Assembly (NCBI RefSeq): GCF_988243305.1
Contig: NZ_OZ547136.1
DNA length: 64,000 nucleotides
Strand: one strand, 5' to 3'
Shown: positions 1,103 to 64,000 of the stretch, piece after piece
How the letters are laid out: the number at the start of each line of letters is the position of its first letter
How positions within the stretch are numbered: the stretch's first letter is position 1
Position numbers and translations under genes: made by a program
The notes under the pieces: model-generated
Database searches by the model: none
The model's input: only the letters and a program-made list of their open reading frames with translations
What the model was told of the DNA's origin: nothing

Positions 1103-1226
1103 AATAATGTTTCATCCGTGAGCGCATCATCTGTCAACTAAATGGCAGGTGAAGGAGGCATAGGTCATACAAATGGATATTACAGACAAAAAAACCCGCC
1201 GCAGCGGGTCTTTGAGCCGGGTTCGA

Positions 1227-2300
<1,074 letters not shown>

Positions 2301-2324
2301 TCACCGAAACTCAGCTTGCCCGGC

Positions 2325-3175: not shown

Positions 3176-3176
<1 letters not shown>
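2325..3176 (-). CDS. ispE: 4-diphosphocytidyl-2-C-methyl-D-erythritol kinase
   Basis: 283-aa [31 protein letters not shown]... matches IspE; GHMP kinase glycine-rich motif [14 protein letters not shown]. Confidence 0.95.
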
Positions 3177-3868
<692 letters not shown>

Positions 3869-4012
3869 CTATGTTCAAGTTGTCTTAATTGCCAGAATCT
3901 AACGGCTTTCGGCAATTACTCCAAAAGGGGGCGCTCTCTTTTATTGATCTTACGCATCCTGTATGATGCAAGCAGACTAACCCTATCAACGTTGGTATTA
4001 TTTCCCGCAGAC

Positions 4013-34039: not shown

Positions 34040-34075
34040 AAACAAAAAAACGGCCCCAGAAGGGACCGTTTATGT
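34040..34075 (-). terminator. rho-independent terminator after adhE
   Basis: Minus-strand hairpin (AAACGGTCCC/GGGGCCGTTT) followed by a T-run, just downstream of the adhE stop. Confidence 0.65.
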
Positions 34076-37894: not shown

Positions 37895-38631
37895 TTCCTT
37901 TCAAATGAAACGGAGCTGCCATGCTCCGTTTACTTCGTCATTATTTTTACTTTGTTCCGGTGCAGTTATCAAAAGCAAAAGGAATAGGTAAAAATATTCT
38001 TCTCAAATTACAGTTAGTTATAAGGATTTCCTTAACTGCTTCTCCTCACCATCATGTTATTTTCGCCACATCATAATCCTGGGCTTGCTGAAGAATAATT
38101 GAAATGATATTAGTAATTCCACTGCCTTTGGTAGAGGAAAGTGCTAAATAATAATCAATTGTTAAATTATTGTGCATTTCACTACTGGAACTGTAATCAG
38201 AAAAGAGAGACATGCTTAACCAATCTCTATTTGATTGAATTAAAAGATGTTTGTTAAGACATGGATGCAAGCTATAGATTCTGATACGGTCAATAAAAGA
38301 GAATTGCTTAACAATTTTGCAAAATGTATTGGCGAGTAAGAAGCGCATTTGGTACTTTCCGGGCAACCGCCAGACGATTCTTTATTGGTAATGAGAATAA
38401 TTAACAATTAAAGAGCGTCGCGAAAGAATAATGTGTCTCGACAGGGGAGACACAGTACGAATCGACATAAGGTGATCGTCTGAATCACCAGAATAAATAA
38501 AGTCGGTGATAGTAATACGTAACGATAAAGTAACCTGACAGCAGAAAGTCTCCGAGCCTGTGCAGGGTCCCAATCCGGGATTACACATGCTGGTTAATAC
38601 CAGTAATTATAATGAGGGAGTCCAAAAAACA

Positions 38632-51470: not shown

Positions 51471-52109
51471 ATGAAAAAGTTAACAGTGGCGGCTTTGGCA
51501 GTAACAACTCTTCTCTCTGGCAGTGCCTTTGCGCATGAAGCAGGCGAATTTTTTATGCGTGCAGGTTCTGCAACCGTACGTCCAACAGAAGGTGCTGGTG
51601 GTACGTTAGGAAGTCTGGGTGGATTCAGCGTGACCAATAACACGCAACTGGGCCTGACGTTTACTTATATGGCAACCGATAACATTGGTGTGGAATTGCT
51701 GGCAGCGACGCCGTTCCGCCATAAAATCGGCACCCGAGCGACCGGCGATATTGCAACCGTTCATCATCTGCCGCCAACACTGATGGCGCAGTGGTATTTT
51801 GGTGATGCCAGCAGCAAATTCCGTCCTTACGTTGGGGCAGGTATTAACTACACCACCTTCTTTGATAATGGATTTAACGATCATGGCAAAGAGGCGGGGC
51901 TTTCCGATCTCAGTCTGAAAGACTCCTGGGGAGCTGCCGGGCAGGTGGGGGTTGATTATCTGATTAACCGTGACTGGTTGGTTAACATGTCAGTGTGGTA
52001 CATGGATATCGATACCACGGCTAAGTACAAATCTGGTGTTACTACCGTAAAAGACTCGGTACGACTGGATCCGTGGGTGTTTATGTTCTCCGCAGGATAT
52101 CGTTTTTAA
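51471..52109 (+). CDS. ompW: outer membrane protein W
   Basis: 212-aa ORF with signal peptide MKKLTVAALAVTTLLSGSAFA and C-terminal aromatic residue (YRF) typical of beta-barrel OMPs. Confidence 0.96.
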   Translation: MKKLTVAALAVTTLLSGSAFAHEAGEFFMRAGSATVRPTEGAGGTLGSLGGFSVTNNTQLGLTFTYMATDNIGVELLAATPFRHKIGTRATGDIATVHHLPPTLMAQWYFGDASSKFRPYVGAGINYTTFFDNGFNDHGKEAGLSDLSLKDSWGAAGQVGVDYLINRDWLVNMSVWYMDIDTTAKYKSGVTTVKDSVRLDPWVFMFSAGYRF

Positions 52110-52154
52110 TTTTCTCTGCAAAACCTCTGCAAAACCCCTCTGCAAAACTGGTCA

Positions 52155-53285
52155 TCAAATGACCAGTTTTTTCCATTCCTTACCGCGTGCGTCGTTGTAA
52201 ATATCGGTCATTTTTTGATTCGAATGGCCTAGCAAAATTTTGGTATCAACCCCCTGCTCTCTGAACAATCGCTCTGATAAAGATCTCTGCTCATGGAAAG
52301 AGGGAGGGGTGCCATTAGCACGCCAGTTGTAATCCACAGAATCCCGGGCTTTTTTAAATGCAACGGTTAATGTTGCTGGCTTAACCATCCCGCCGCGCTT
52401 AGCTGTCCCTTTCGCGTGATGGTGGTGCAATAGCCACGGACTAAGAACGCAATCGCGGCAGGATGACACCACATCATCCAGGGTGAGATTTAATTTATCG
52501 CAACGCAGAGCCAGAGGGATGGCAATCCGGGTTCCTGTTTTTTGCTGTTCGACATGAAGATAACCATCCCGGATATCCGAAAATTGCATTTTGCAAATAT
52601 CTGAAAGGCGCTGGCCTGTCATCAGTGCCAGCAGCATACCGCGCTGTAAAAAGTAACCATCCTTTTCCGCTGCGTTATAAATCATCATCCACTCATCAAA
52701 AGTCAGTCGCTGTCTTGATATCCGCACCTGCGGTTTTTTTGCCGATTCTGCAGGGTTAAAGCCTGGCGGGACATCGCCCGTTTGCTGAGCTTCCCGGAAA
52801 ACATCGATCAGTACTTTCCTGAAAATTTGTCCCATTCTGTTATGTCCTCTGGCCTTGTACTCTTCCAGTACTGATACCACATCTTTTACGGTTATGGCAT
52901 CTAACGGTCTGGTGCCAAAACGTTCATCAAATACCCTGAGAGGGGCCGCTTTCTGTTTCAGCGTGTTGAGTTTGATCTCGCCGTTTTCATATCTTTCCTG
53001 TTGAATTTTTCTGTAATTATTCAGAAAAATGGTAACGGTTGATGAACCGCCGGTATCACTAATAATTTTCTCCTGCAGACTGAGCATTTGTTCCATTTGC
53101 TGCCGGGCAAGACGGCTGTTCGCTTCTGCTGCAATAGTTTCTGCCAGTTTCTGGTCAATACTGCCGAGACCGTGATTTTTGCCTGTTATGGGATGCCTGT
53201 AACGCCAGTAAACTTTGTTATTTCTTTTGTCAAAATACGGAGATAATCCCGGAACATCGGTTTTATATTTTCGCGGGCGCGCCAT
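52155..53285 (-). CDS. int: phage tyrosine integrase (lambda Int family)
   Basis: 376-aa ORF; C-terminal catalytic region with LGHSNQKMTDIYNDARG (Tyr nucleophile context); 3' end overlaps the hairpin adjacent to ompW. Confidence 0.9.
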   Translation of the reverse strand: MARPRKYKTDVPGLSPYFDKRNNKVYWRYRHPITGKNHGLGSIDQKLAETIAAEANSRLARQQMEQMLSLQEKIISDTGGSSTVTIFLNNYRKIQQERYENGEIKLNTLKQKAAPLRVFDERFGTRPLDAITVKDVVSVLEEYKARGHNRMGQIFRKVLIDVFREAQQTGDVPPGFNPAESAKKPQVRISRQRLTFDEWMMIYNAAEKDGYFLQRGMLLALMTGQRLSDICKMQFSDIRDGYLHVEQQKTGTRIAIPLALRCDKLNLTLDDVVSSCRDCVLSPWLLHHHHAKGTAKRGGMVKPATLTVAFKKARDSVDYNWRANGTPPSFHEQRSLSERLFREQGVDTKILLGHSNQKMTDIYNDARGKEWKKLVI

Positions 53286-53511
53286 CTTCCAGTATCCTCT
53301 TCAAAGCAGGGTGATCTGTGGCGATCACCTCCGGCTTGTTTACCATTCCGACAAAGCGAGCTTGCGGATCCACTCGCCAGCGTCTTCCAACTTTTTTGGG
53401 GAGAGGAAATATCATTCCGGCTTTAGCGTATTTACTTAACGTACTCGGAGTAGGGACCGGTTCACTGAATTCCTCTTTTGCCCACTCAGTGAGCAGAATA
53501 AGTCTTGCCAT
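53263..53511 (-). CDS. xis: excisionase-like DNA-binding protein
   Basis: 82-aa ORF MARLILLTEWAKEEF... with a winged-helix pattern similar to lambda Xis (MYLTLQEWNARQ...); overlaps int start by 23 nt. Confidence 0.7.
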   Translation of the reverse strand: MARLILLTEWAKEEFSEPVPTPSTLSKYAKAGMIFPLPKKVGRRWRVDPQARFVGMVNKPEVIATDHPALKRILEDGAPAKI

Positions 53512-53575
53512 GAGCGTCGTTCGCTAATCATGGTCGCCGCCACTATAGCTGGTGGGCAACGACCGGGGTTGAACA

Positions 53576-56050
53576 TTAAAAATCAGCCTGATTCGGGATC
53601 AGTTTTTGCCAGATAGTTGAAACGTATTTTGCCTGGTAACGGGCATCATCCAGCGCATTGTGGCGCTCACCTTCGAATGGAATAGCCGCCCTGGCATCGA
53701 AGTCCATGGCTTTTCCCAGCTCAACGATTGTGCGTACATCGCGATCGTTGTAGTAACGCCACGGGCAGGGGATCCCCTGCCGTTCGTATGAACGGCGCAA
53801 AATCGTGTTGTCGAAGTTGGCTCCATTTCCCCAGACCTGAACAAAAAATTCGCCGGAGTTTTCGTCGATAAATTCCCGCAATTGCAGCAGTGCATCATCT
53901 AACGGGATTTCATCGGTCAGAATGGCAGATTGCGCCTCCCGTGATTGCTTAAGCCACCATTTAATGGTGCCACGATCAATGACTCCGCCAGCAGTATCCA
54001 TATCGATGGTCTTACTAAATTCCGGCCCCATATCTCCGGTTTGCGGATCGAAAAATATTGCACCTATTGAGATAAGCGGGGCATCGGGATTTTTTCCCAT
54101 GGTTTCAAGGTCGATCATCATGTGGTGCCACATTCTGCTGGTGGATGTGATTTCTTGATGACCGTTCACCTTAATTGAGTGATCTGCCGTCTCGCCAGTT
54201 TCATTATCGCTATCGTGATGCTGATTGCCGCCAGTGTTCTCCTTGTGTGGATGTTCAGCGCCTTCCATTTCCTCTGGATCATCTTCCTGAACTTCAGGCT
54301 GATACTCTTCATCGAATGTTTCCTGGTATGTTGCGTCGCCCATTACCGCGCCACAATCAGGGCAGTTGCCGCCGCCGGTCTGACCGCAGGCGGTGCAGAC
54401 TTTTTCCACTTCCTGTTGCGCCACTGATTCAGGCTGTTTCGTTTCTGGCTCGTTTTGTAACGCATTTGGGCTGTTTTGTTCCGCTTTCTGGTCGTTCTGT
54501 TCCGTTTCTTGCTGGTTCTGGTTCACAGAATCGCGGGTCTGGTTCCCCTTAACCCATTTCGGATCATTCGGGTCGCTAATCCCTTCAACAAATTCACCAC
54601 GTGATACTGCAAGCAGTTCATCGGCGTCAGGCTGGCTGATATTGGCTGCCTGCATAATTTTGTTTACTTCGTCAGCGGTAACTTTTACTGGCTCTGGTTG
54701 TGCGGTCGTGTCAGATGCACCAGTATTTTGTTGTGAACCTGAGTATGTACCGTTTTTACGTGCGAAGTATTCCTCTTTTGTGATTTCCGTAGCTCCCAGG
54801 GCCAGTGCTTTTTCCAGACCAGAAAGTTTGTTTGCGCGACCGTATTTTTCGCCGTCCTTATCGGTGAAAAGGAAGTAGAACGGTCCCTCACGCTCTACAG
54901 ATGGTTCGTCTTCCACTTCGCATTCGGTTTTTTCGTTGTCCGGCATTGCCGTTTCCACTGCATCAGTTTCTGGTACTGGTGACGGGAGAGTACCAGCTGT
55001 GCCCTGATTTGTTCCTTCGTCATCTTCAAACACGCCCTTGGTAGTCAGGTATTCAGTGATGTATTTGTTCAGTGCTACGGGATCTTTGTGAATGTCGATC
55101 GGACGCTCACGGACAAGGCCAAAAATAGTCTGACGGTCGTAGCGAACGGCATCGGGTTGTTTGCGCATTGATGCGGAAATGCGCTTCCAGTCTTCGCGAT
55201 CTTTGTCGATAACTTCATTTTTTGCCCAGCGATGGATGCTGCCGTCAATGTTTCCGGTATCAATATCGCCAGGCCAGAGAGCGTAGGCCAGTTCTTCATC
55301 CAGCGTTTTCCATGTCTGCTTGTATTCGCGACAAATGGCGGCAGTGACTGGGTTGATTTTTCCTGCTGAGTTTTCAGTGTTCTGTTGATTGACTCTGGCG
55401 CGGGCGAGATCAACAACAGACGTGTATTTTCCGGTTTCCTTGCGTTCACCTTCGCGACGTTTTTTCCAGATGCGCATCTCTGCCTGAATTTCGGGCCATT
55501 TGGCACCAGGCTTACATTTATGCTTAACCCACCCGATGGCATGCAGCTTAAGCTCCGGATACATGGCGTTAACTTCTGGCATTTTCATCAACGCTTCAAC
55601 GATATGTCCGTCGAATGTTGCCATGTCTTCCTGCAACAATTCCTGTGCGCTAATAACCATATCAACGGTGATGTTTTCACATGTGTCGAACTTAACCATG
55701 ACAGCGTTCTGTACTTCAGGGGCCAGCTTGTCAAAAGTGACGTTCATCGGATCGGATTCAGTCTCAACCGGGACAAAGGAAGCAGACTCCTCATCCCAGC
55801 GGTTTTCCTGCATATATTCAGCATCCCAGGAATCGAGGGCAGGGCGGGGTATACCGGGTTTATCCTCGCAGACAAGAAATTTATAAGCGCAGTCCTGAGC
55901 AGCCGGATAATGCTCCAGGAATTGCCAGTGAAATTTTGCGCGGGCGCGACGTTCATCACCGGCTTCAATGGCAGTGGCTACAGCGACGGCACCTTCTTCC
56001 TTTATTGCCTGTTCGTCCGGAATGGCGGCGCAAATAAAGACTTTACTCAT
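53576..56050 (-). CDS. large prophage exonuclease: RecE/exonuclease VIII-like positional homolog with C-terminal DnaQ-like (DEDDh) 3'-5' exonuclease motifs and an internal CxxC-x8-CxxC zinc ribbon
   Basis: 824-aa ORF; C-terminal motifs MIDLETMG (Exo I), WGNGANFD (Exo II), HNALDDARYQA (Exo III); Cys pair CTACGQTGGGNCPDCG; acidic low-complexity linker; positioned between dicB and xis like lambdoid exo genes. Confidence 0.7.
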   Translation of the reverse strand: MSKVFICAAIPDEQAIKEEGAVAVATAIEAGDERRARAKFHWQFLEHYPAAQDCAYKFLVCEDKPGIPRPALDSWDAEYMQENRWDEESASFVPVETESDPMNVTFDKLAPEVQNAVMVKFDTCENITVDMVISAQELLQEDMATFDGHIVEALMKMPEVNAMYPELKLHAIGWVKHKCKPGAKWPEIQAEMRIWKKRREGERKETGKYTSVVDLARARVNQQNTENSAGKINPVTAAICREYKQTWKTLDEELAYALWPGDIDTGNIDGSIHRWAKNEVIDKDREDWKRISASMRKQPDAVRYDRQTIFGLVRERPIDIHKDPVALNKYITEYLTTKGVFEDDEGTNQGTAGTLPSPVPETDAVETAMPDNEKTECEVEDEPSVEREGPFYFLFTDKDGEKYGRANKLSGLEKALALGATEITKEEYFARKNGTYSGSQQNTGASDTTAQPEPVKVTADEVNKIMQAANISQPDADELLAVSRGEFVEGISDPNDPKWVKGNQTRDSVNQNQQETEQNDQKAEQNSPNALQNEPETKQPESVAQQEVEKVCTACGQTGGGNCPDCGAVMGDATYQETFDEEYQPEVQEDDPEEMEGAEHPHKENTGGNQHHDSDNETGETADHSIKVNGHQEITSTSRMWHHMMIDLETMGKNPDAPLISIGAIFFDPQTGDMGPEFSKTIDMDTAGGVIDRGTIKWWLKQSREAQSAILTDEIPLDDALLQLREFIDENSGEFFVQVWGNGANFDNTILRRSYERQGIPCPWRYYNDRDVRTIVELGKAMDFDARAAIPFEGERHNALDDARYQAKYVSTIWQKLIPNQADF

Positions 56051-56222
56051 TTTGTTTTACCTCATTACAGATTTAAGGGTGAACAAATCCCTGCCATTGC
56101 TGGCATATAAGAATGAAACCGGATATTTATTACGGAACTGTTTTAAAGACCTGCCGGGATTTCGATATCAACTGGCTCTCCGGAAACAAGAAAAACTGTC
56201 AGAACAAGTGCAAATGCTGTAT

Positions 56223-56411
56223 TCATTGCCAGCATCCTTTTTGTATCGGACGTAAACGGGCCAGCATTGAAAGAATGCATATTTTATTTAATAGCTCCCG
56301 TTCGTGTTTTCTCTTGTTAATGGCATCTTCAGTAAATACAGGGTTACTGATAGTGACACCAATTTCAAAACAACCTTCAGACGTATTAACGTTTGGTAAT
56401 AACGTTTCCAT
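56223..56411 (-). CDS. dicB: cell division inhibitor DicB
   Basis: 62-aa ORF METLLPNVNTSEGCFEIGVTISNPVFTEDAINKRK... from ATG 56411 (GAGG SD upstream) inside track ORF 56223-56516; lies about 170 nt downstream of DicF as in the dicB operon. Confidence 0.75.
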   Translation of the reverse strand: METLLPNVNTSEGCFEIGVTISNPVFTEDAINKRKHERELLNKICILSMLARLRPIQKGCWQ

Positions 56412-56585
56412 TATCGCGTCCTCAACAATGAATTTTGTGATGCGGTGCCTGGTGCCTCCAGGTGACGTTAACCAGTTAACAATTAACGCCGGATACAGAG
56501 AATCCACCCATAACACTGTTTTTGGTTTTAACTGTTCCGCGTGCGCTCAGCCGCATTCACCACATCACAAAATTCACTTTAAAAA

Positions 56586-56638
56586 GGGCGGCAGAGCAGT
56601 CACGGAGTAAAACTGATACCGCCAAACGTCACCAGAAA
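56586..56638 (-). ncRNA. dicF: DicF small regulatory RNA (ftsZ-targeting)
   Basis: Reverse complement reads TTTCTGGTGACGTTTGGCGGTATCAGTTTTACTCCGTGACTGCTCTGCCGCCC followed by a T-run; matches the 53-nt DicF sequence as recalled, with its 3' terminator hairpin. Confidence 0.75.
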
Positions 56639-56977
56639 ATTGATAACAGAGGGCGTTGCAGCGGGGTTGTCACTTAAGCGTATGGTCAACCTGACAACCC
56701 GGTGTCCTCAACGGGGGAAGGAATAACCCCGCCATACTTACCGCCGCGCCATTTCGCGGATTGCCACAACCGGAAGCGCACGGTCGACGAAAATTTAACG
56801 ACAGGCTATCTATGAACCAGCTACCTCGCCGTGCGCTTTCGCGTTATGGTCTGACTTTTCAGGGAAATATCCTTTCAGTAAACTGTCAGTGCCGGATTCT
56901 TATCCGTGTCCGGCGCACGACCACACGCTGTCACGAGAGGTCTCCATTCTCAACCAGTAACCTCAATGGAGGATAAA

Positions 56978-57172
56978 ATGTCAGAGCAGGAGTTAAAACT
57001 TGGTGCATGTTATTGTGTTCTCAAGGAGCTGGTACACATGCTTCCATCTACTCAGTATCAACAGTTAGTTGGCAATTTAAATCAGCGAATCGAAGCTATG
57101 TTAAAATCTGATGGTTTTAATAACGTAGAAACGCTGATGCTAAAAAGATATCTTGATGGATTAATCAGATAA
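56978..57172 (+). CDS. hypothetical small protein (64 aa) encoded convergently within the early-left region
   Basis: ATG at 56978 preceded by a strong SD (TGGAGGATAAAATG); MSEQELKLGACYCVLKELVHMLPSTQYQQLVGNLNQRIEAMLK...; inside track ORF 56906-57172; no competing minus-strand ORF over 25 aa in this interval. Confidence 0.5.
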   Translation: MSEQELKLGACYCVLKELVHMLPSTQYQQLVGNLNQRIEAMLKSDGFNNVETLMLKRYLDGLIR

Positions 57173-57499
57173 CATTTTTTTACGGCGTTCATATTCGTTA
57201 ATATTTATGAAGCCTGTTGCCAGAAGCAGTTCGTTAATTTCATGGTTGTTTGGCTGTTTCTGGCTCTTTGAGCTGGGATCTTCCACTTCTTTTTCTGCAA
57301 ATTGTTTTGCTGTATCCTCTGTGCCATGGATATTTAAAGCTGTATCTGAAAACAGCCCAGTAAACGCATCGCGCACATTACGAGCCATATTATCAGTGTC
57401 TTTTTTTGTTACCGATTCCAATTCAAGTTCGTTCAGACGATGACGAAGTGTGTGTGCTGCAATCTCCTGGATTGAAGGAGGTAAATCTTTAAATTCCAT
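57161..57499 (-). CDS. hypothetical early-left protein (112 aa)
   Basis: Track ORF 57161-57511; start placed at second ATG 57499 (MEFKDLPPSIQEIAAHTL...) which has a GAGG SD; 3' end overlaps the convergent plus-strand ORF by 12 nt. Confidence 0.55.
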   Translation of the reverse strand: MEFKDLPPSIQEIAAHTLRHRLNELELESVTKKDTDNMARNVRDAFTGLFSDTALNIHGTEDTAKQFAEKEVEDPSSKSQKQPNNHEINELLLATGFININEYERRKKMLSD

Positions 57500-57510
57500 C
57501 GTCAACCTCA

Positions 57511-57744
57511 TCAGTCAGTGTTTCTTGCTAACCAGCGATGCGCGCCAGCTGCGGTTTTAAACGTTTTACTTTTGGTATACGTCATCGCGGTGAAGGTGCC
57601 GTCCTGGTTAGGGAACACACCGCATACCAGAGATTCGTTGTTGCCAAGATCGATAGTATCCATGCTGACCTCATTTCCCCTTAACGCCGGGGTAGCGGAA
57701 CAAAAACCTGCTGCATAGTTATTAAAGTTGAACCCTGCCGTCAT
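57511..57744 (-). CDS. hypothetical early-left small protein (possibly YdfB-like); start ambiguous (57744 or internal ATG 57663)
   Basis: Track ORF of 77 aa; both ATG 57744 and ATG 57663 (MDTIDLGNNESLVCGVFPNQDGTF...) have GAGG SD sequences upstream; first gene downstream of the OL-type operator. Confidence 0.55.
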   Translation of the reverse strand: MTAGFNFNNYAAGFCSATPALRGNEVSMDTIDLGNNESLVCGVFPNQDGTFTAMTYTKSKTFKTAAGAHRWLARNTD

Positions 57745-57846
57745 GTTCTTACGCCTCGGGCTGGCTACTTACCCCCTGACCACTGCTTGGTAACTCGAAG
57801 TATTGCCCGGCGTTCTGTGGGGCGGGGTGGGTTGGTATGTTGTTAA

Positions 57847-57860
57847 GGTAACAAGAGTTA
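57847..57860. promoter_or_regulatory. candidate left operator (OL) for the prophage repressor
   Basis: 14-bp palindrome GTAACAAGAGTTAC (GTAAC-N4-GTTAC), same motif as the two sites between the cI-like and cro-like genes. Confidence 0.55.
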
Positions 57861-57903
57861 CCTTTCGAGTCAATACAATGTTGCAAAAGGTACATTCGAG
57901 GGC

Positions 57904-57930
57904 ATAAAAAACCCGCAATGAATGCGGGTT
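57904..57930 (-). terminator. rho-independent terminator after the repressor gene
   Basis: Minus-strand hairpin ACCCGCATTCATTGCGGGT followed by a T-run immediately after the cI-like stop. Confidence 0.7.
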
Positions 57931-57935
57931 CTGAC

Positions 57936-58610
57936 TCAGTCTAAGTATTGATGTATTTGTGAAACTTTACCTTTAATGGTGTAACCACCATTAAGTTCGA
58001 TGGGTTTGTAAAGCGGATTCAGTGACAACAGATAGATGTTTGGTCCGTCAATCGCAACTTTTTTTAGTGTTACGTTTGGCGTTCCTTCCAATTGGATTAA
58101 GATTATTTTTCCCACCAGTTCTCTAATGTTACTTGAGCATGGTGTGATCAGCACGGTAGATCCGTCGGGGATGGTTGGGAGGCCGTTAGAGTTTGTCATC
58201 GCATCTCCCTCAACATGCAATAAAAAAGAGTTTTCAGCGGTTTTTGTCATGACATCAACCCAATTCTTAATACCAGGAATCTCGGTTACTGGACAACTCA
58301 TATCCCAATAACCAGCCTGTTCCCACGTTAAAACGGGCAACCGGGCGATGTTGTCACTAATGTAAGGGTACTGATTCAGACGCAGATCATCGGCTTTATC
58401 GTGACCGTCCTTTCCATAAAGAATCCATTCAGGAGATTTGGAAAGCAATTTTGACAGTAGATACAAATTCTCACCGTCAGGTTTTGAAGAGCCATTTTCC
58501 CATTTTGTTACGGATACACGAGATATGCCGATTGCTTTCGCAACCTGCTGTTGGGTTAATCCAACGTCTTTTCGACGATTCCGAATACGTTCGCTGATAG
58601 TGTTTTTCAT
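57936..58610 (-). CDS. prophage CI-like repressor (XRE HTH N-terminal domain plus S24/LexA-like autopeptidase C-terminal domain)
   Basis: Track ORF 57936-58709; start placed at ATG 58610 (MKNTISERIRNRRKDVGLTQQQVAKAIGISRVSVTKWENG...) by close resemblance to the P22 C2 N-terminus; C-terminal Ser/Lys dyad context (GDAM...KK). Confidence 0.85.
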   Translation of the reverse strand: MKNTISERIRNRRKDVGLTQQQVAKAIGISRVSVTKWENGSSKPDGENLYLLSKLLSKSPEWILYGKDGHDKADDLRLNQYPYISDNIARLPVLTWEQAGYWDMSCPVTEIPGIKNWVDVMTKTAENSFLLHVEGDAMTNSNGLPTIPDGSTVLITPCSSNIRELVGKIILIQLEGTPNVTLKKVAIDGPNIYLLSLNPLYKPIELNGGYTIKGKVSQIHQYLD

Positions 58611-58624
58611 GTAACCAATGTTAC
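58611..58624. promoter_or_regulatory. candidate right operator site (PRM-proximal)
   Basis: Palindrome GTAACCAATGTTAC immediately upstream of the repressor start. Confidence 0.55.
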
Positions 58625-58658
58625 TACCAAGTGATGTTGCTATGGTTGACATTGTTAT

Positions 58659-58672
58659 GTAACTATTGTTAC
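58659..58672. promoter_or_regulatory. candidate right operator site (PR-proximal)
   Basis: Palindrome GTAACTATTGTTAC adjacent to a TTGACA hexamer (58646-58651) upstream of the cro-like gene. Confidence 0.55.
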
Positions 58673-58701
58673 CCTTCTGCTCGAAATAACAGGAGAGTTT
58701 T

Positions 58702-58917
58702 ATGTTCAAAGATGATGTTCTGCGCTATTTCAAAAAAAAGCGACTAGTAGCTGAGGCTCTTGGAATTTCACATGTGGCTGTTGTGCGGTGGAAAGCAGTT
58801 ATTCCCAAACTTCGCGCAATGGAACTGGATGAAATTACTAACGGTGAATTGAAATACAACCCAGAACTTTACAAGAAGCAGGATAGCACCTCAAACGAAG
58901 GAAAGAATGATTCATGA
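58702..58917 (+). CDS. Cro-like/YdaS-family HTH DNA-binding protein
   Basis: 71-aa ORF with SD AGGAGAG; HTH segment LVAEALGISHVAVVRW; divergent from the repressor gene. Confidence 0.7.
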   Translation: MFKDDVLRYFKKKRLVAEALGISHVAVVRWKAVIPKLRAMELDEITNGELKYNPELYKKQDSTSNEGKNDS

Positions 58918-59339
58918 AAATCAAGCATGAACACATCCGCATGGCGATGAATGTCTGGGCGCATCCGGACGGCGAAAAAGTGCCGGCTGCGAAAATTACC
59001 AAAGCGTATTTCGAGCTGGGAATGACGTTCCCGGAACTGTATGACGACAGCCATCCGGAAGCCCTGGCCCGTAATACCCAGAAAATTTTCCGTTGGCTGG
59101 ATAAAGACACCCCTGATGCTGTTGAAAAAATGCAGGCTCTGTTACCGGCGATCGAAAAGGCGATGCCGCCTTTGCTGGTGGCCCGTATGCGCAGCCACAG
59201 TTCTGAATATTACCGTGAGATCGTCGAACGGAGGGATCGGCTGGTGAAGGATGTCGATGATTTTGTTGCGTCAGCGGTTGTTTTGTATGACCAGATGAAT
59301 CGCGGCGGCCCGGCAGGGAATGCTGTGGTGATGCACTAA
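58914..59339 (+). CDS. CII-like/YdaT-family prophage regulator
   Basis: 141-aa ORF overlapping the cro-like stop; size and position match the YdaT family that follows ydaS in Rac-type prophages. Confidence 0.55.
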   Translation: MKIKHEHIRMAMNVWAHPDGEKVPAAKITKAYFELGMTFPELYDDSHPEALARNTQKIFRWLDKDTPDAVEKMQALLPAIEKAMPPLLVARMRSHSSEYYREIVERRDRLVKDVDDFVASAVVLYDQMNRGGPAGNAVVMH

Positions 59340-59361
59340 AAGCACGGTGTTCGGGGGTTTT

Positions 59362-60324
59362 ATGAGCAGCAAGCTTCATGGTCTTGTCTGGGAAGGGTGC
59401 GCCTTCACCGGCATGATCTTATCCAGGGTGGCGGTTATGGCCCGTCTTGCAGACTACAGCAATGACGAGGGCGTGTCATGGCCTGCCATTGAAACTATCC
59501 GGCGTCAGATCGGTGCAAGAAGTGAATCCACAGTGAAATCGGCTATTGCAGAACTGGCGAAAGAGGGCTGGCTGACGAAGGAAGAGCGTAAGGTCGGTGG
59601 GCGTAATGTAAGCAATATCTATCGGCTTAATGTGGAAAAACTCGAAGCAGCTGCGGCGGCGGCGCGTGAGTCATATAAACCGAAAAGAAAAATTAGCCCG
59701 GCAAAAAATGACCCGTTAACAGTTGACCCGTCAAATATTGACCCCTCAACGGTTGACCCGTCAAATTTTGATGGATCAACTGTTGATAAAAAACTGCCGA
59801 TTAGGGGGGCGATGATTGACCCCGATCCGTCAGTATTAAAACCTGATCCGTCAGATAAAAGATCTTCTTGTCCGGACGCTTCGCAACCGGACCCGCAGAC
59901 GGCTGAACAGGATTTTTTAACCCGACACCCTGACGCGGTTGTGTTCAGTGCGAAAAAACGCCAGTGGGGAAGTCAGGAAGATTTGGTGTGCGCACAGTGG
60001 ATCTGGGGACGAATCGTGAGTCTTTACGAGCAGGCGGCCAGCTATGATGGCGAGATCACTAGACCGAAAGAACCCAACTGGACAGCATGGGCCAATGACG
60101 TTCGCACAATGCGGATGCTGGATGGCAGAACTCACAGACAAATTTGTGAAATGTTTGGGCGTCTCCAGCGGGATTCGTTCTGGGTAAAAAACATCATGAG
60201 TCCGGCAAAACTCCGGGAAAAATGGGATGAACTGGTTATCCGCCTGGGGCGTTCGCCTGCGCAGCGTTGCGTGAATCACATTTCTGAACCGGACACTGAA
60301 ATTCCGCCGGGCTTCAGGGGGTAA
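59362..60324 (+). CDS. phage replication initiator (lambda O-like, HTH N-terminal domain) containing internal iteron-like repeats
   Basis: Track ORF from GTG 59347; ATG 59362 has a GGGGG SD; N-terminal winged-helix segment (LSRVAVMARLADYSNDEGVSWPAIETIRRQIG); central DPS-rich linker encoded by repeated TTGACCCGTCAA units. Confidence 0.6.
   Translation: MSSKLHGLVWEGCAFTGMILSRVAVMARLADYSNDEGVSWPAIETIRRQIGARSESTVKSAIAELAKEGWLTKEERKVGGRNVSNIYRLNVEKLEAAAAAARESYKPKRKISPAKNDPLTVDPSNIDPSTVDPSNFDGSTVDKKLPIRGAMIDPDPSVLKPDPSDKRSSCPDASQPDPQTAEQDFLTRHPDAVVFSAKKRQWGSQEDLVCAQWIWGRIVSLYEQAASYDGEITRPKEPNWTAWANDVRTMRMLDGRTHRQICEMFGRLQRDSFWVKNIMSPAKLREKWDELVIRLGRSPAQRCVNHISEPDTEIPPGFRG
59708..59790. repeat. iteron-like direct repeats (candidate phage replication origin) inside the replication gene
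   Basis: About five copies of a 12-15 bp unit (TTGACCCGTCAAAT and variants, each an internal dyad TTGAC/GTCAA) followed by an A-rich stretch GATAAAAAACTG. Confidence 0.6.
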
Positions 60325-60364
60325 GTGTTAATTTCTGGTCATGAGGTAATTTTCAGGAGGACTT

Positions 60365-60640
60365 GTGGCAAAAGTTTTTACACAAGAAGAGCGGGAAAAA
60401 ATTAAAGGGCTGATCGTGGAATTCGTACGCCTTAACGGACGAGGCACGATTCGGCAGTTATCGGATGAAATTGGTGTCAGTCATACGTCTGTCGGTCGTT
60501 TATGCATGGAGCTGGCCGCCAGTGGTGATGTTTACAATTCCGGTTACGGAGTATTCCCGTCTGAGCAGGCGCGCAAGGACTGGCAAAACGCCCGCAAAAA
60601 AACTCTCAAGGGCAAAGCTGAAGAAACCATCTGTGGTTGA
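60365..60640 (+). CDS. hypothetical small protein with predicted winged-helix/HTH segment
   Basis: 91-aa ORF from GTG with SD CAGGAGGAC; HTH-like GTIRQLSDEIGVSHTSVGRLCMELAASG. Confidence 0.5.
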   Translation: MAKVFTQEEREKIKGLIVEFVRLNGRGTIRQLSDEIGVSHTSVGRLCMELAASGDVYNSGYGVFPSEQARKDWQNARKKTLKGKAEETICG

Positions 60641-60788
60641 TCCGGACCTTATCTGGCTATTACCTGACGGAGAAATACGTCGCTACGACAGGCGTCAGAA
60701 CATAATCTGTCGCGAGTGCCGGAAGAGCGAAGTTATGCAGCGCGTACTGGCGTTTTATCAGGGGAATTTTCAGGAGGTAGCGCAGTGA
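60633..60788 (+). CDS. hypothetical micro-protein (51 aa), translationally coupled
   Basis: GTG at 60633 overlaps the upstream stop (GTGGTTGA); its stop overlaps the next start (GTGA); part of track ORF 60465-60788. Confidence 0.35.
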   Translation: MVDPDLIWLLPDGEIRRYDRRQNIICRECRKSEVMQRVLAFYQGNFQEVAQ

Positions 60789-61273
60789 GTGCACCGGCAA
60801 CCATTCTTGATATGTGCTGTGGCAGCCGTATGTTCTGGTTCGATAAGAATGACGACCGGGCGATATTTAGCGATATCAGAAAAGAAGAGCACACATTGTG
60901 TGATGGACGACGCCTGATTATCAGTCCTGACCTGATAGCAGATTTTCGAGCATTACCATTTGCAGACGCATCGTTTCCGGTTGTTGTATTCGACCCTCCG
61001 CATCTTGAGTGTGTTGGTGATAAAGCCTGGATGGGAAAGAAATATGGACGGTTGAATAAAGATACCTGGCGTGATGATTTGCGGCAGGGATTTAAAGAAG
61101 CTTTTCGTGTGTTGTGGCCACATGGCGTTCTGATTTTTAAATGGAATGAAACGCAAATATCTGTCCGCCAGATATTGGCACTAACCGACGCGAAACCAAT
61201 CATCAGCCAGCGCACCGGTAAGAACGATAAAACACATTGGATTATTTTTGTGAAGGAGGCGACCAGTGGGTAA
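60785..61273 (+). CDS. putative SAM-dependent (DNA) methyltransferase, orphan
   Basis: Track ORF 60716-61273; GTG at 60785 preceded by SD CAGGAGG; motif I-like ILDMCCGSRMF and motif IV-like FDPPHL; no adjacent restriction endonuclease gene. Confidence 0.5.
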   Translation: MSAPATILDMCCGSRMFWFDKNDDRAIFSDIRKEEHTLCDGRRLIISPDLIADFRALPFADASFPVVVFDPPHLECVGDKAWMGKKYGRLNKDTWRDDLRQGFKEAFRVLWPHGVLIFKWNETQISVRQILALTDAKPIISQRTGKNDKTHWIIFVKEATSG

Positions 61274-61520
61274 ATCAAAATGCCAGGTTTATGGCAACAA
61301 GATAGAACCGTGTACGACCCTGGCAAAATCCCTTGAGCATGATGCTGAATACACGATGCGAAAAGGTCTGCTGATATACAAAATCTGGAATGAGAGTTTA
61401 ACTCGCGGTCCTGATTTTGTGATGTTGCGTTCCGGTGAATTTTCTAAATTACCAGTTCGGGTTTCATTTTGTCCGTTCTGTGGTGAAAGTCTGAAAACGT
61501 GGGAGAACAGAAATGAATGA
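61266..61520 (+). CDS. hypothetical zinc-ribbon protein
   Basis: 84-aa ORF with Cys pairs C6/C16 and CPFC near the C-terminus; overlaps neighbours by 8 nt on each side. Confidence 0.45.
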   Translation: MGKSKCQVYGNKIEPCTTLAKSLEHDAEYTMRKGLLIYKIWNESLTRGPDFVMLRSGEFSKLPVRVSFCPFCGESLKTWENRNE

Positions 61521-61824
61521 AATTAAAGAAATACCAGTAGTACGTGATGAATATGGCTACTGGACGCATCCTGAATATGAAAAATTCTGTGACGGTCGGG
61601 AATATATTTCAACGGAAGAGTTTAACGCCTGGATGGAGGAAAATAATCTTCAATACGTCCTCTGCTTCAGAGATGAAGGATGTGCTGACCTTGATGCGTG
61701 TGATGCTGATATTTCTGCATGGGAACCGGAACGACCAGAGGGCAATGGATGGTTTATTGGTTCAATACATGACACCGAAGATGGCCCGGTTTGTGTATGG
61801 CTGAGAAATAAGGCCGAAGCATAA
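61513..61824 (+). CDS. hypothetical acidic phage protein
   Basis: 103-aa ORF, D/E-rich (DEGCADLDACDADISAWEPERPEG). Confidence 0.45.
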   Translation: MNEIKEIPVVRDEYGYWTHPEYEKFCDGREYISTEEFNAWMEENNLQYVLCFRDEGCADLDACDADISAWEPERPEGNGWFIGSIHDTEDGPVCVWLRNKAEA

Positions 61825-61952
61825 AGGCTATAAACCGACTAACAACTAAATACTGAAGATTTAAATCAGAAACGATTTTTATTAAATCCTTAACCGGAGG
61901 GATTCCTGCACCCTCAGAACATCAGGAGGCCGTCCGAAAGGGCGGTAGTGAA

Positions 61953-62135
61953 ATGCGAAAATTCAAAATAATTATTGAAACGGGAATAGCCGGTGGAGAT
62001 TTCGAGGATGAATTCGAAGTGGATGATGATGCAACACCAGATGAAATACAGGATGAAGCTAAAGATATTTTCTTTAACTACTGCAATTACTCATACCACG
62101 AAATAAAAGACGAAGAGGAAGAACAAAATGGCTGA
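61953..62135 (+). CDS. hypothetical very acidic small protein (60 aa)
   Basis: About one third of residues are D/E (FEDEFEVDDDATPDEIQDEAKD...KDEEEEQNG). Confidence 0.45.
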   Translation: MRKFKIIIETGIAGGDFEDEFEVDDDATPDEIQDEAKDIFFNYCNYSYHEIKDEEEEQNG

Positions 62136-62304
62136 TTTTGGTTCAACTAAATATAACGCCAGTTTTGAAGAATGGCATGAACTGTTAATGGATTATGCAG
62201 AGTTACGCGGTGGAAGTGCCGCTGATGCTGAAGCATGGCGTGATGATTATGAAGCAGGGAAAACACCGGTCGAAGCATATTGTGATGAGTGGGGCGATGA
62301 ATGA
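62128..62304 (+). CDS. hypothetical acidic small protein (58 aa)
   Basis: ATG 62128 overlaps upstream stop (ATGGCTGA); MADFGSTKYNASFEEWHELLMDYAELRGGSAADAEAWRDDYEAGKTPVEAYCDEWGDE; below track size cutoff. Confidence 0.4.
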   Translation: MADFGSTKYNASFEEWHELLMDYAELRGGSAADAEAWRDDYEAGKTPVEAYCDEWGDE

Positions 62305-62660
62305 GCGAGATTAATTATCAGGAAGGGCATGAAAAGGTAGGGCAGGCAAAACCAGTGGCATGGCGATATCGCTACGTGAAAAAAGGCGTTACAGACTTTC
62401 AGGGGAAGCAGTGGGTTGGTGACTGGAAATATGTCCCGACAAAAGAGGATTGTAACGACAGACCAAACTATGAAATTCAGGCGTTATTCACGGCCCCGCC
62501 AGCTTCGGTGACATCAGAAGGACTGGTTAAAGCTGTGCGCTTTTATGAACAGGTACGGCGTGAGGATCCGCCAGTTGAAACCGGAGCATGGAAAGACGCT
62601 ATTGACTGGGTACTCAAGGAGGCCTGCCTGGTTGTAAACACGGGCATCAAAGGAGGCTGA
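62301..62660 (+). CDS. hypothetical phage protein
   Basis: 119-aa ORF, start overlaps upstream stop (ATGA). Confidence 0.45.
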   Translation: MSEINYQEGHEKVGQAKPVAWRYRYVKKGVTDFQGKQWVGDWKYVPTKEDCNDRPNYEIQALFTAPPASVTSEGLVKAVRFYEQVRREDPPVETGAWKDAIDWVLKEACLVVNTGIKGG

Positions 62661-62876
62661 ATGGGTATTGCCGCAAGTTATACCATGCATCTCTATTGTG
62701 ATTGCCGCCAGTGTACGGATGGCAAATATCAGTCGCCAGATTTTGGTGAGTATATCGGTACGTCATGGGCTGGCTGTGCAAAAGAGGCACGTAAAGATGG
62801 GTGGCGAATAAGTGCCGACAAAACGCGTGCTTTTGCGCCAAGGCATAAAATTTTGAGGAGCAACAAAGGAGAGTGA
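62661..62876 (+). CDS. hypothetical Cys-rich small protein
   Basis: 71-aa ORF with CDCRQC motif, immediately after the previous stop. Confidence 0.4.
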   Translation: MGIAASYTMHLYCDCRQCTDGKYQSPDFGEYIGTSWAGCAKEARKDGWRISADKTRAFAPRHKILRSNKGE

Positions 62877-62877
62877 T

Positions 62878-63096
62878 GTGCCTACATTATTCAGAAAAGA
62901 ATATCCGCGAAAAAGTAGAGCGACAGAATTTTTGTTTCTCATTCTGTTTATCGTGTTGATGATACCGATATCCCCGTTAATTCTGGTATGGGGAATCGGA
63001 AAAATAATTGAGCCAGTTATTGAATTGTATAACGACGTGGTATGGGCTCCGTTCAACACACTGCACAATAAAATTAATCCGTATAAGGAAAACTGA
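62878..63096 (+). CDS. hypothetical small membrane protein
   Basis: 72-aa ORF with one strongly hydrophobic segment (FLFLILFIVLMIPISPLILVWGIG). Confidence 0.4.
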   Translation: MPTLFRKEYPRKSRATEFLFLILFIVLMIPISPLILVWGIGKIIEPVIELYNDVVWAPFNTLHNKINPYKEN

Positions 63097-63097
63097 T

Positions 63098-63361
63098 ATG
63101 GCAACTTTGACAAAAAAAGAACAGGCATGGTTGAACGAATTACAGGACGTTCTTGATCGCTGTCCATCACCGAAAAAAATTGGTTTTTACACCATTGGCG
63201 ATAAAAGCATTTACCTGTATGACCTGCGCCGCATGGATGAAATCATGGAGGCTCTTGATAATCGTTCGTCAATGGATTGGTGTGTTGCTGTCCATGATAT
63301 GAATGCAGGGTTTGATGAAAAGATTTTGTTCCCCTCATCAGTTGAAAGCACTGCGGGTTAA
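63098..63361 (+). CDS. hypothetical phage protein
   Basis: 87-aa ORF from ATG 63098 (MATLTKKEQAWLNELQDV...) within track ORF 63008-63361. Confidence 0.4.
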   Translation: MATLTKKEQAWLNELQDVLDRCPSPKKIGFYTIGDKSIYLYDLRRMDEIMEALDNRSSMDWCVAVHDMNAGFDEKILFPSSVESTAG

Positions 63362-63371
63362 GGAGTAACAC

Positions 63372-64000
63372 ATGACCACTATTACCAAAGAACGTATTGA
63401 ATTGTTCATTAAAAACCCGCTTGAAAACGGGCTTACCCGTGGTGAACAAATGGAACTGGCACGGATTGCGCTGGCATCGCTGGAAGCAGATCCAGTTAAA
63501 CGAGTTAACTCAGATCAGATGCGCCGAGTCTGCTTAGAAGCTAATCGCCATTTAGATAAATATGACGCGATGGCGAAAGAGGTAAATAAGTTGCTTGGAC
63601 GCATCGCCCCGCCAGCGCCGGTAGTGCCGGAAGAAGCAACTCCGGAAAACGTAGAAATGCTCTCTGGCTATGTTTCCACGTACAAATTAACCGATAGCGA
63701 GCGCGATATTGCTGCCGAAATATGGAACGCCTGCCGCACCGCCATGCTTCAGTCCGGAAACTTTCGGGAAAGCAAGAATTCGTCAACCAATAATTTTCGG
63801 GAAATCCCGGAAGCGTCAACCAGCTCTCCGGTAACTCCGGCTCTTCTGCCTGGTGGTTTCACCATTGAGGAGGCGAAGGAATTACATGAAGACCTGGTAC
63901 GCAGCCACATAAGCAAGGCCTTAAGTGGCGAAAAGATGAAAAAGAAAGATCGCGATGCTGATTTGCGCTGGATTCATGGCGTTATAGTTCAGGCAGCGTG
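63372..64000 (+). CDS. hypothetical phage protein, partial (runs off window end)
   Basis: ATG 63372 with SD AAGGAG; open frame MTTITKERIELFIKNPLENGLTRGEQMELARIALASLEADPV... without stop to 64000. Confidence 0.5.
   Translation, partial: MTTITKERIELFIKNPLENGLTRGEQMELARIALASLEADPVKRVNSDQMRRVCLEANRHLDKYDAMAKEVNKLLGRIAPPAPVVPEEATPENVEMLSGYVSTYKLTDSERDIAAEIWNACRTAMLQSGNFRESKNSSTNNFREIPEASTSSPVTPALLPGGFTIEEAKELHEDLVRSHISKALSGEKMKKKDRDADLRWIHGVIVQAA

Follow-up and report, generated by a model that had tools for sequence, protein, structure and literature searches.

Which element occupies the DNA behind ompW in contig NZ_OZ547136.1 (assembly GCF_988243305.1), and where does the chromosome give way to it? 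The stretch analysed here, referred to as the window, is 64,000 nucleotides long. The initial annotation described the conserved E. coli core order up to ompW, followed from position 52110 by a mosaic lambdoid prophage directly downstream of this gene. Alignment against K-12 supports the first part, since window positions 2299-52111 are collinear with K-12 from ispE to ompW. In K-12, ompW is directly followed by yciE and the site is empty, so the region is not fixed core. The presence of a lambdoid prophage was also confirmed, as its early region takes up everything between ompW and the end of the window at base 64000. This early region encodes integrase, excisionase, an 824-aa exonuclease, DicB, DicF, repressor, cro, a YdaT-like protein, an O-like protein, a methyltransferase and small ORFs resembling a nin region. 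We are highly confident that this is a lambda-like prophage of the PPompW type, represented by its left (early) arm and integrated by crossover inside the 3' end of ompW. The ompW site, the att sequence and the gene set have already been described and are annotated in thousands of genomes.

The junction consists of two features:
51991-52018, plus strand: 28-bp att core CAGTGTGGTACATGGATATCGATACCAC inside ompW, the crossover point
52019-52111, plus strand: replacement ompW 3' end carried by the phage (93 bp, comprising the final 30 codons and the stop)

In a three-way alignment, the core is identical in the window (attL), K-12 (attB) and strain MY1-8 (attR), and the sequences diverge from it leftward in attR and rightward in attL. 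The switch to phage DNA is thus located within ompW and not at 52110 behind it: the last 93 bp of the gene are already phage-derived. Core and phage-borne end together form a 121-bp attL (51991-52111), matching the 121-bp att in ompW of PPompW prophages (Nakamura et al. 2021, PMC8112680). The 21-bp secondary attB of PPompW was absent from the window and may be located in the right arm beyond it; no tRNA was found at the junction. In strain MY1-8, the displaced original ompW end of 126 bp is present as a remnant pseudogene at attR, adjoining yciE. During integration, the tyrosine integrase would recombine the phage attP with the core in the ompW 3' end, and the original end would be moved to attR, roughly 50 kb away and beyond the window. 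The gene is kept intact as a host-phage chimera because a diverged version of its final 93 bp comes with the phage. Phage 21 and e14 likewise integrate in the 3' end of a gene, icd, and supply a diverged replacement end with which the gene stays functional. The present case differs in gene and integrase, and in that seven changed residues are clustered in one hairpin of an outer membrane protein.

Compared to the K-12 ompW end, positions 52019-52111 show 72% identity, with 48% in 52019-52062 and 94% in 52063-52111. Codon comparison yielded seven nonsynonymous changes, all within residues 185-194. These are predicted to sit in the last (beta7-beta8) hairpin, based on the standard 8-stranded barrel topology and on solved OmpW structures, which are 100% alignable outside residues 185-194. 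A single-sequence AF2 prediction of OmpW gave no usable model for mapping the changed residues (pLDDT 28). A link to colicin S4 was considered. Its reported contact residues D116, H117 and E120 fall outside the changed segment, and therefore we make no claim of altered colicin sensitivity.

Between the junction and the immunity region, the following features were identified:
52155-53285, minus strand: tyrosine integrase, 376 aa (phrog_7244, 2e-77; phrog_1)
53263-53511, minus strand: excisionase, 82 aa (phrog_629, 3.7e-35)
53576-56050, minus strand: exonuclease, 824 aa (phrog_2082, full length)
56143-56226, minus strand: ydfD lysis-gene remnant, 27 aa (in-frame 108-bp deletion in the alignment with EC931 and K-12 Qin)
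56223-56411, minus strand: dicB, cell-division inhibitor, 62 aa (NCBIfam NF049927)
56586-56637, minus strand: DicF small RNA (Rfam RF00039, full length)
56978-57172, plus strand, opposite to its neighbours: 64-aa ORF in moron position, weakly IraP-like (phrog_4987, 9e-49)
57161-57511, minus strand: early-left ORF of unknown function, 116 aa (phrog_2151, 2e-55)
57511-57744, minus strand: ydfA-like DUF1391 ORF, first in the leftward operon (phrog_751)

The integrase translation shows the R, K, HxxR, H and Y motifs. The int-xis-exo stretch (query bases 1-4901) shares 95.8% DNA identity with 11 GenBank records of PPompW or Stx2-in-PPompW; taken over the stretch as a whole, this exceeds the 90% identity expected for a PPompW integrase such as EC112648_1574. 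The exonuclease is composite: residues 1-256 are 95% identical to K-12 ydfE (Qin), residues 262-626 resemble RecE (38% identity), and a 3'-5' exonuclease of the DEDD type forms the C-terminus (Pfam Rv2179c-like PF16473, 5e-66, residues 643-814). The gene ydfD is intact in all eight records among the matches listed, in which BLAST joins the flanks of the deletion.

A Qin-type DicF/DicB pair, as initially annotated, is present. DicF reached 76.7 bits (gathering score 48) and aligns with the K-12 dicF region without a mismatch. DicB reached 132.7 bits (NCBIfam cut-off 100) and is 89% identical to K-12 DicB. The Qin-type operon order ydfA...dicF-dicB-ydfD is kept, with ydfD internally deleted. The ydfA-like product is 89% identical to K-12 YdfA and 75% to YdaF of Rac. 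For the 116-aa ORF, no Pfam or PADLOC match was obtained.

The 64-aa ORF was predicted to fold into a three-helix bundle (AF2, pLDDT 86). No NCBIfam match to IraP was found, the Pfam E value was 0.098 and hhalign gave a probability of 7%. P0029, a homologue with 72% identity, reached 26.8 bits against the IraP cut-off of 78. BLASTP returned nothing and Foldseek nothing significant in the PDB, while a Foldseek search of AFDB listed five IraP/YaiB models in its top 30, at non-significant E values of 1-6. We regard an IraP identity of this ORF as a weak lead.

The immunity region comprises:
57848-57861, palindrome: putative left operator GTAAC-N4-GTTAC, upstream of the leftward operon
57906-57930, minus strand: terminator-like hairpin with T-run, just past the repressor stop codon
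57936-58610, minus strand: CI-type repressor with HTH and S24 domain, 224 aa from Met15 of a longer ORF
58611-58672, palindromes: putative right operator region with two GTAAC-N4-GTTAC sites (58611-58624 and 58659-58672) in the gap between repressor and cro
58702-58917, plus strand: cro of the P22-Cro/DicC type, 71 aa (Pfam P22_Cro, 3e-16)
58914-59339, plus strand: YdaT-family CII-like activator, 141 aa (Pfam YdaT_toxin PF06254, 3.9e-10)

This arrangement corresponds to a lambdoid immunity layout, in which repressor and cro are divergent and the predicted operators are repeated at the leftward promoter. GTAAC-N4-GTTAC has only three exact matches in the 64 kb, all in the immunity region; by chance, 1.27 matches would be expected with one mismatch allowed. 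P22 operators are 18-bp sites of a different sequence. A simple consensus scan revealed no PL- or PR-like promoter in the immunity region. The simple promoter and terminator scan also overlooked the hairpin behind the repressor gene, which was located by RNA folding: a 46-nt segment around it folds at -16 kcal/mol, and the stem is followed by TTTTTT.

Cro is 39% identical to DicC and 47% to P22 Cro. The initial annotation had proposed a YdaS/YdaT-like cro/cII pair, of which only the second member holds. No BLASTP alignment of cro to K-12 YdaS was obtained, and Pfam YdaS_toxin reached only 2e-3 compared to 3e-16 for P22_Cro. The YdaT-like protein, in contrast, carries the family domain (4e-10), belongs to phrog_163 ('CII-like') and is 31% identical to K-12 YdaT; its gene is located between cro and the replication gene. 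A CII-like role was demonstrated for the YdaT homologue of CP-933P (PMC8630535). In CP-933P and Rac, a YdaT-family gene also follows cro and precedes the O-like gene, but there the cro is YdaS and the repressor PaaR2 or RacR, whereas the present prophage has a P22-Cro/DicC-type cro and a CI/S24 repressor.

The CI-type repressor is predicted to bind the three palindromes and thereby to shut two divergent operons. The leftward operon would comprise the ydfA-like gene, the 116-aa ORF, DicF, dicB, the ydfD remnant, exonuclease, xis and int. The rightward operon would comprise cro, the YdaT/CII-like gene, the O-like replication gene, the broken DUF977 gene, the methyltransferase and the small ORFs. 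In its layout, the region corresponds to Qin, the cryptic prophage of K-12, prior to decay.

The repressor has HTH_3 (6e-17) and Peptidase_S24 domains (1.3e-16, model positions 1-115 of 116). Its full-length identity to P22 C2 is 36%, and its HTH is 57% identical to that of DicA. HTH, full-length S24 domain, Ala-Gly cleavage site and catalytic Lys are shared with lambda cI, P22 C2 and LexA; the QAG and KK motifs align with those of lambda cI and P22 C2. At the position of the S24 nucleophile, where these proteins have Ser, the repressor has Ala, encoded by GCG (58200-58202). Its GDAM motif aligns with GNSM of lambda cI (Ser149) and GDSM of P22 C2. It is established that self-cleavage is lost in LexA S119A and lambda cI S149A, as Slilaty and Little reportedly showed in 1987. 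RecA-stimulated self-cleavage of the present repressor is predicted not to work because Ala replaces the nucleophilic Ser, and the protein would have the S24 fold while lacking the activity that defines the family.

The GCG codon is common to EC931, EC958 and C8, while an 83%-identical allele has TCA (Ser). Ser is also found in homologues of at most 65% identity and in the close allele P0003 (87%); the exception is the Salmonella allele P0005 (68% identity), which has Ala as well. The exact 43-mer across the Ala codon occurs in 680 of 5426 genomes, ST131 included. Among 50,697 phage genomes, none was seen to encode a version of this repressor with more than 43% identity. Strains of bovine, canine, poultry and human origin carry nearly identical copies of the Ala allele. 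Its occurrence in unrelated hosts is hard to square with a prophage unable to leave its host. The near identity of the allele argues for another route of induction, or for recombination having spread the immunity module. Induction would require an antirepressor or cleavage in trans, or else be absent. The complete relatives examined have no annotated antirepressor gene, and we found no literature on the inducibility of the ST131 ompW prophage.

Downstream of the YdaT-like gene, the window contains:
59347-60324, plus strand: O-like replication initiator (phrog_391, 2e-115)
60365-60788, plus strand: DUF977/LygF/Ren-like gene (phrog_142), broken by a frameshift
60785-61273, plus strand: DNA methyltransferase, 162 aa (phrog_954; boundaries from strain 55989)
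61266-63361, plus strand: eight small ORFs of unknown function (PHROG 4030, 1372, 1997, 519, 660, 926, 1832, 1714)
63372-64000, plus strand: Ea22-like ORF, cut by the window end (phrog_60, phrog_5117)

Every ORF, including the cargo in which the initial annotation saw the likeliest place for uncharacterised functions, was assigned to PHROG families, most of them of unknown function. Alignment of the DUF977 gene with 55989 and EC931 places a +1 frameshift within the A7 run at 60596-60602, which could also be a homopolymer sequencing error. The methyltransferase matches the PADLOC models MTase_II (2e-71) and orphan MTase; it lies in segment 60792-61245, an insertion relative to the closest relative, EC931. 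No defence systems were found, as PADLOC analysis of ten cargo proteins yielded methyltransferase models only. The Ea22-like ORF is 54% identical to P22 EaA over 83 aa, and RefSeq relatives are named 'ead/Ea22-like'. Absence of a DnaC-like gene was considered as a sign of decay and rejected because an O-like gene is likewise followed by DUF977 in PhiR42_1 and other relatives. Three features of the window do look like decay: ydfD is internally deleted, DUF977 is frameshifted and the repressor has exchanged Ser for Ala. These could point to a degrading element and not a working phage.

The element was compared to known prophages. PPompW prophages of STEC O145:H28 and other E. coli (PMC8112680; GenBank LC5678xx) have the same ompW site and the same 121-bp att, but share only 39% of the 12-kb query and differ in the immunity, replication and nin-like regions. 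Qin of K-12 has the same gene order, and DicF and the dicF-dicB spacer are nearly identical. Besides DicB, YdfA and the DicA HTH, identities to Qin were 95% for YdfE (exonuclease N-terminus) and 39% for DicC. Qin differs in its integrase and in its site (ydfJ/rspB instead of ompW); its exonuclease is truncated by IS2 and full-length here, the present repressor has an added S24 domain, and other small ORFs stand in place of ydfB and ydfC. Phage PhiR42_1 shows the same layout as the early region of the window, and an intact element of this layout occupies the rspB/Qin locus of strain 2012C-4431.

Could the region be ancient, fixed E. coli core instead of a mobile element? The chimeric ompW junction is indeed very common, being present in 1728 of 5426 complete E. 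coli genomes (about a third). However, K-12 and about two thirds of the genomes keep the uninterrupted K-12-type ompW end, and the empty K-12 site refutes a fixed core. The prophage content behind the junction varies between strains: coverage of the 14 kb is at most 92% in any of the 5426 genomes, and compared with the best match, two segments (56920-57519 and 60792-61245) have been exchanged or inserted. In addition, excised and circularised prophages (at ompW, in PPompW and at yecE) were detected by PCR (PMC8112680, S1 Fig). We consider this explanation practically untenable. Improbable, to a lesser degree, is the patchwork of Rac-, Qin- and P22-type modules that the initial annotation proposed. 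The YdaT family domain with 31% identity to Rac YdaT, the RecE-like middle of the exonuclease and the 36% identity of the repressor to P22 C2 fit such an origin. These Rac and P22 similarities are at family level (31-38%), though, whereas similarities to Qin amount to 89-95%. In tblastn searches covering Qin, Rac and P22, nearly all K-12 similarity was to Qin, in Qin gene order, and Rac gave family-level matches only (YdaT 31%, RecE middle 38%, YdaF 75%). Cro lacks a YdaS match, and Qin has its own YdaT-like remnant at the same position (ydfX, 36%). The element is mosaic in the usual lambdoid sense, and probably not drawn from different cryptic prophages.

A more serious alternative, which we still judge rather unlikely, is a grounded, decaying remnant like Qin or Rac, kept as harmless or useful through DicF/DicB, the methyltransferase or the altered OmpW. 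Such a remnant would neither be induced nor form particles, and its right arm may be truncated. The nucleophile-dead repressor, the in-frame deletion in the lysis gene ydfD, the frameshifted DUF977 gene, the absence of the repressor from sequenced free phages and vertical persistence in ST131 are in line with this assumption. On the other hand, the integrase, excisionase, exonuclease, cro, YdaT-like and O-like genes are all full-length, ydfD and DUF977 are accessory genes, and unrelated hosts carry almost the same immunity allele. The head, tail and lysis modules are complete in the closest relatives. The window itself stops at 64000, but a matching attR next to yciE, together with a full right arm, was found in related genomes. 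One of these is strain MY1-8, whose full prophage of 50 kb carries structural and lysis genes in its right arm.

Within the preferred reading of a PPompW-type prophage, we tentatively propose, as a possibility we rate below even chances, that a pseudo-protease CI (Ser to Ala, cleavage site kept) holds the immunity type in about one eighth of complete E. coli genomes, including ST131. The prophage would be blind to direct induction by RecA. It would need an antirepressor acting in trans or trans-cleavage by a co-resident element, or be permanently domesticated. If this is true, the prophage would serve its host via DicF/DicB, the altered OmpW surface hairpin and, possibly, a stabiliser of RpoS resembling IraP.

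The corrected junction helps annotation: roughly one E. coli genome in three has a chimeric host-phage ompW with seven changed residues, and what is labelled an 'ompW pseudogene' next to yciE is the original end of the gene after displacement. If biochemically confirmed, a nucleophile-dead repressor would bear on which prophages of clinical lineages such as ST131 are induced by DNA-damaging antibiotics, and on which resident prophages depend on other prophages.

Between the end of ompW and nucleotide 64000, the window is occupied by lambdoid prophage DNA, namely the early region. This is the concordant result of six-frame ORFs, family scans and BLAST, and it bears out the initial annotation, which had reported such a prophage at ompW. 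The following features were found.

Features of the prophage early region
52155-53285, leftward: int, last gene of the arm
53263-53511, leftward: xis
53576-56050, leftward (minus strand): exonuclease, 824 aa
56143-56226, minus strand: ydfD remnant, in the leftward arm between dicB and the exonuclease gene
56223-56411, leftward: dicB (NCBIfam 132.7 bits, cut-off 100)
56586-56637, leftward: DicF RNA (Rfam 76.7 bits, gathering score 48)
56978-57172, plus strand: 64-aa ORF (phrog_4987), sole opposite-strand gene in the left operon
57161-57511, leftward: 116-aa ORF
57511-57744, leftward from the immunity region: ydfA-like DUF1391 ORF
57848-57861: left palindrome, upstream of the leftward operon
58611-58624 and 58659-58672: two right palindromes, between repressor and cro
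58702-58917, rightward: cro
58914-59339, rightward: YdaT-family gene (Pfam 3.9e-10)
59347-60324, rightward: O-like replication gene
between O-like gene and methyltransferase, rightward: DUF977/LygF gene
60785-61273, rightward: DNA methyltransferase
after the methyltransferase, rightward: eight small ORFs, each of a PHROG family without known function
window end, rightward: Ea22-like ORF, truncated

The integrase motifs are intact in the int translation. A match to STnc100 at 56379-56588 (minus strand), spanning the spacer between dicF and dicB together with the first part of dicB, stays below the Rfam threshold (38.7 bits, gathering score 47) and probably reflects a homologous Salmonella prophage region.

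At the K-12 locus, ompW is followed by yciE with nothing between them. A three-way alignment of the window, K-12 (attB, the empty site) and the far end of the MY1-8 prophage (attR) yielded a common 28-bp core, CAGTGTGGTACATGGATATCGATACCAC, at 51991-52018. To its right the window departs from K-12, to its left the MY1-8 attR departs. Because the sequences diverge on either side of this core, the crossover falls within ompW, and not downstream of the gene as had been proposed; it precedes the boundary at 52110 by 92-120 bp. The adjoining 93 bp (52019-52111) are phage DNA restoring the final 30 ompW codons. MY1-8 has a complete prophage of about 50 kb, beyond which the original ompW end persists as a 126-bp 'OmpW family' pseudogene adjoining yciE. 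Core and replacement end together span 121 bp, and Nakamura et al. 2021 (PMC8112680) gave precisely this length for the att of the lambda-like prophage PPompW. GenBank PPompW records are 95.8% identical to the window over int-xis-exonuclease.

The phage-borne ompW end shows 72% overall identity to K-12, with 48% over 52019-52062 and 94% over 52063-52111. The former span (codons 184-198) holds all seven amino-acid changes, which fall within residues 185-194 (N185K, L188S, G190V, A191T, Q192T, Q193V and H194K). Elsewhere the gene differs from K-12 only synonymously, with just eight changes in the 548 bp upstream of the core. The altered residues are placed in the beta7-beta8 hairpin between the final two barrel strands, which points outward in the standard topology of eight-stranded barrels. 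Solved OmpW structures align perfectly everywhere but at these seven residues. None of the colicin S4 contact residues reported for OmpW lies within the changed segment. Phage or colicin recognition by the chimeric OmpW may be altered.

The element is common and variable, but not fixed. An ancient, fixed core locus is refuted by the empty K-12 site. Of 5426 complete E. coli genomes, 1728 cover a 201-bp junction query to at least 80%, and the remainder have a K-12-type ompW end. When the same genomes were queried with the 14-kb prophage region, coverage reached at least 80% in only 19 and never exceeded 92%. Compared with the best match, EC931, the window has a replacement at 56920-57519 and additional sequence at 60792-61245, which is normal lambdoid mosaicism. 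The K-12 core order described up to ompW was confirmed, as 2299-52111 runs collinear with the ispE-ompW stretch of K-12; the sole differences are two IS elements present in K-12 and minor variation in repeat number. ISZ (between tdk and adhE) and IS5U (between ychE and oppA) are missing from the window at about 34055-34064 and 38144-38147, respectively, and the ldr/rdl and tyrT-tyrV repeats differ in copy number.

All window proteins were searched by tblastn against K-12 Qin, K-12 Rac and P22.

Matches of early-region proteins
Exonuclease: Qin, residues 1-256, 95% to YdfE; Rac, residues 262-626, 38% to RecE; P22, none
DicB: Qin, 89%; Rac, none; P22, none
YdfA-like protein: Qin, 89% to YdfA; Rac, 75% to YdaF; P22, none
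Repressor: Qin, HTH 57% to DicA; Rac, none; P22, 36% to C2, full length
Cro: Qin, 39% to DicC; Rac, no YdaS match; P22, 47% to Cro
YdaT-like protein: Qin, 36% to YdfX; Rac, 31% to YdaT; P22, none

Similarity to Qin is strong and in Qin gene order, which does not agree with the proposed blend of modules from different cryptic prophages. Of the suggested YdaS/YdaT-like pair, only the YdaT member stands; the other gene belongs to the Pfam family P22_Cro (3e-16, YdaS_toxin merely 2e-3). CII-like action of YdaT-family proteins was shown for CP-933P (PMC8630535). Since the same layout also occurs in phage PhiR42_1 and, with a different integrase, at the Qin locus adjoining rspB in strain 2012C-4431, the description that best fits the early region is that of a Qin-type layout which has not decayed, coupled to an ompW-specific integration module. 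The 2012C-4431 element (NZ_CP024289.1, 1276290-1291022) is an apparently intact prophage; its repressor allele, of 83% identity, still has the catalytic Ser.

Two genes are disrupted in the sequence of this copy. In ydfD, a lysis gene in Qin, 108 bp have been lost in frame by comparison with EC931 and K-12 Qin, and 27 codons are left; the gene is intact in all of the eight best genomic matches. The DUF977/LygF gene is frameshifted by one extra A (A7 at 60596-60602, A6 in relatives); either the gene is a pseudogene or the homopolymer was misread in sequencing.

The exonuclease combines a YdfE-like N-terminus, a RecE-like middle and an Rv2179c-like 3'-5' exonuclease C-terminus (PF16473, 5e-66), the latter in the position of the 5'-3' nuclease of RecE. 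Its neighbours include no RecT/Bet-like partner gene. A large existing family (phrog_2082) has this architecture, and K-12 ydfE is a truncated N-terminal remnant of the gene. Of ten cargo proteins, PADLOC matched the methyltransferase alone, by type II or orphan MTase models. The 64-aa ORF belongs to a tiny family (four representatives among 1.8 billion proteins) and is modelled by AF2 as a confident three-helix bundle (pLDDT 86). A relationship to the RssB anti-adaptor IraP is a lead only: Pfam gave E=0.098, a 72%-identical homologue named IraP by NCBI scored 5e-6 with NCBIfam IraP, under the cut-off, and five IraP/YaiB models were in the top 30 of AFDB Foldseek (TM-scores up to 0.82, E values 1-6), while BLASTP, hhalign (7% probability) and PDB Foldseek gave no support.

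An exact GTAAC-N4-GTTAC palindrome occurs three times in the 64 kb, and we infer that the repressor binds all three copies. The repressor is taken to be 224 aa long (57936-58610), because the first right-hand palindrome abuts the ATG at 58610, a start common to many homologues. Its stop codon is followed by a strong hairpin and T-run. The protein has HTH_3 and full-length Peptidase_S24 domains, and alignment with lambda cI (PDB 3bdn) and P22 C2 showed that the Ala-Gly cleavage site (EQAGYW) is kept, as is the Lys-Lys. The catalytic-Ser motif reads GDAM, where lambda has GNSM and P22 has GDSM.

The Ala codon (GCG, 58200-58202, minus strand) is also present in EC931, C8 and the ST131 strain EC958; in an allele of 83% identity the codon is TCA (Ser). 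Among homologues, the clusters with Ala are the close ones from E. coli (98% and 89% identity) and a single one from Salmonella (68%); Ser is found in one close allele (87%) and all others at ≤65%. The immunity region was present in 701 of the 5426 genomes, and an exact 43-mer spanning the Ala codon in 680, including EC958. None of 50,697 phage genomes searched encodes a repressor with >43% identity. Because LexA and lambda cI lose self-cleavage when this Ser is exchanged for Ala, we predict by analogy that RecA-stimulated self-cleavage would be unable to inactivate this repressor. No antirepressor is annotated in the complete relatives inspected. Across cattle, dog, poultry and human strains the allele is nearly identical, from which it follows that horizontal movement or exchange of the module has continued. 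This counts against a simple 'locked-in' reading.

Taken together, the ompW prophage is real and was correctly spotted, yet it is an ordinary element of a kind described before, for which both the boundary and the module assignment need correction. The nucleophile-dead repressor is the single feature of this prophage that might merit experiment.
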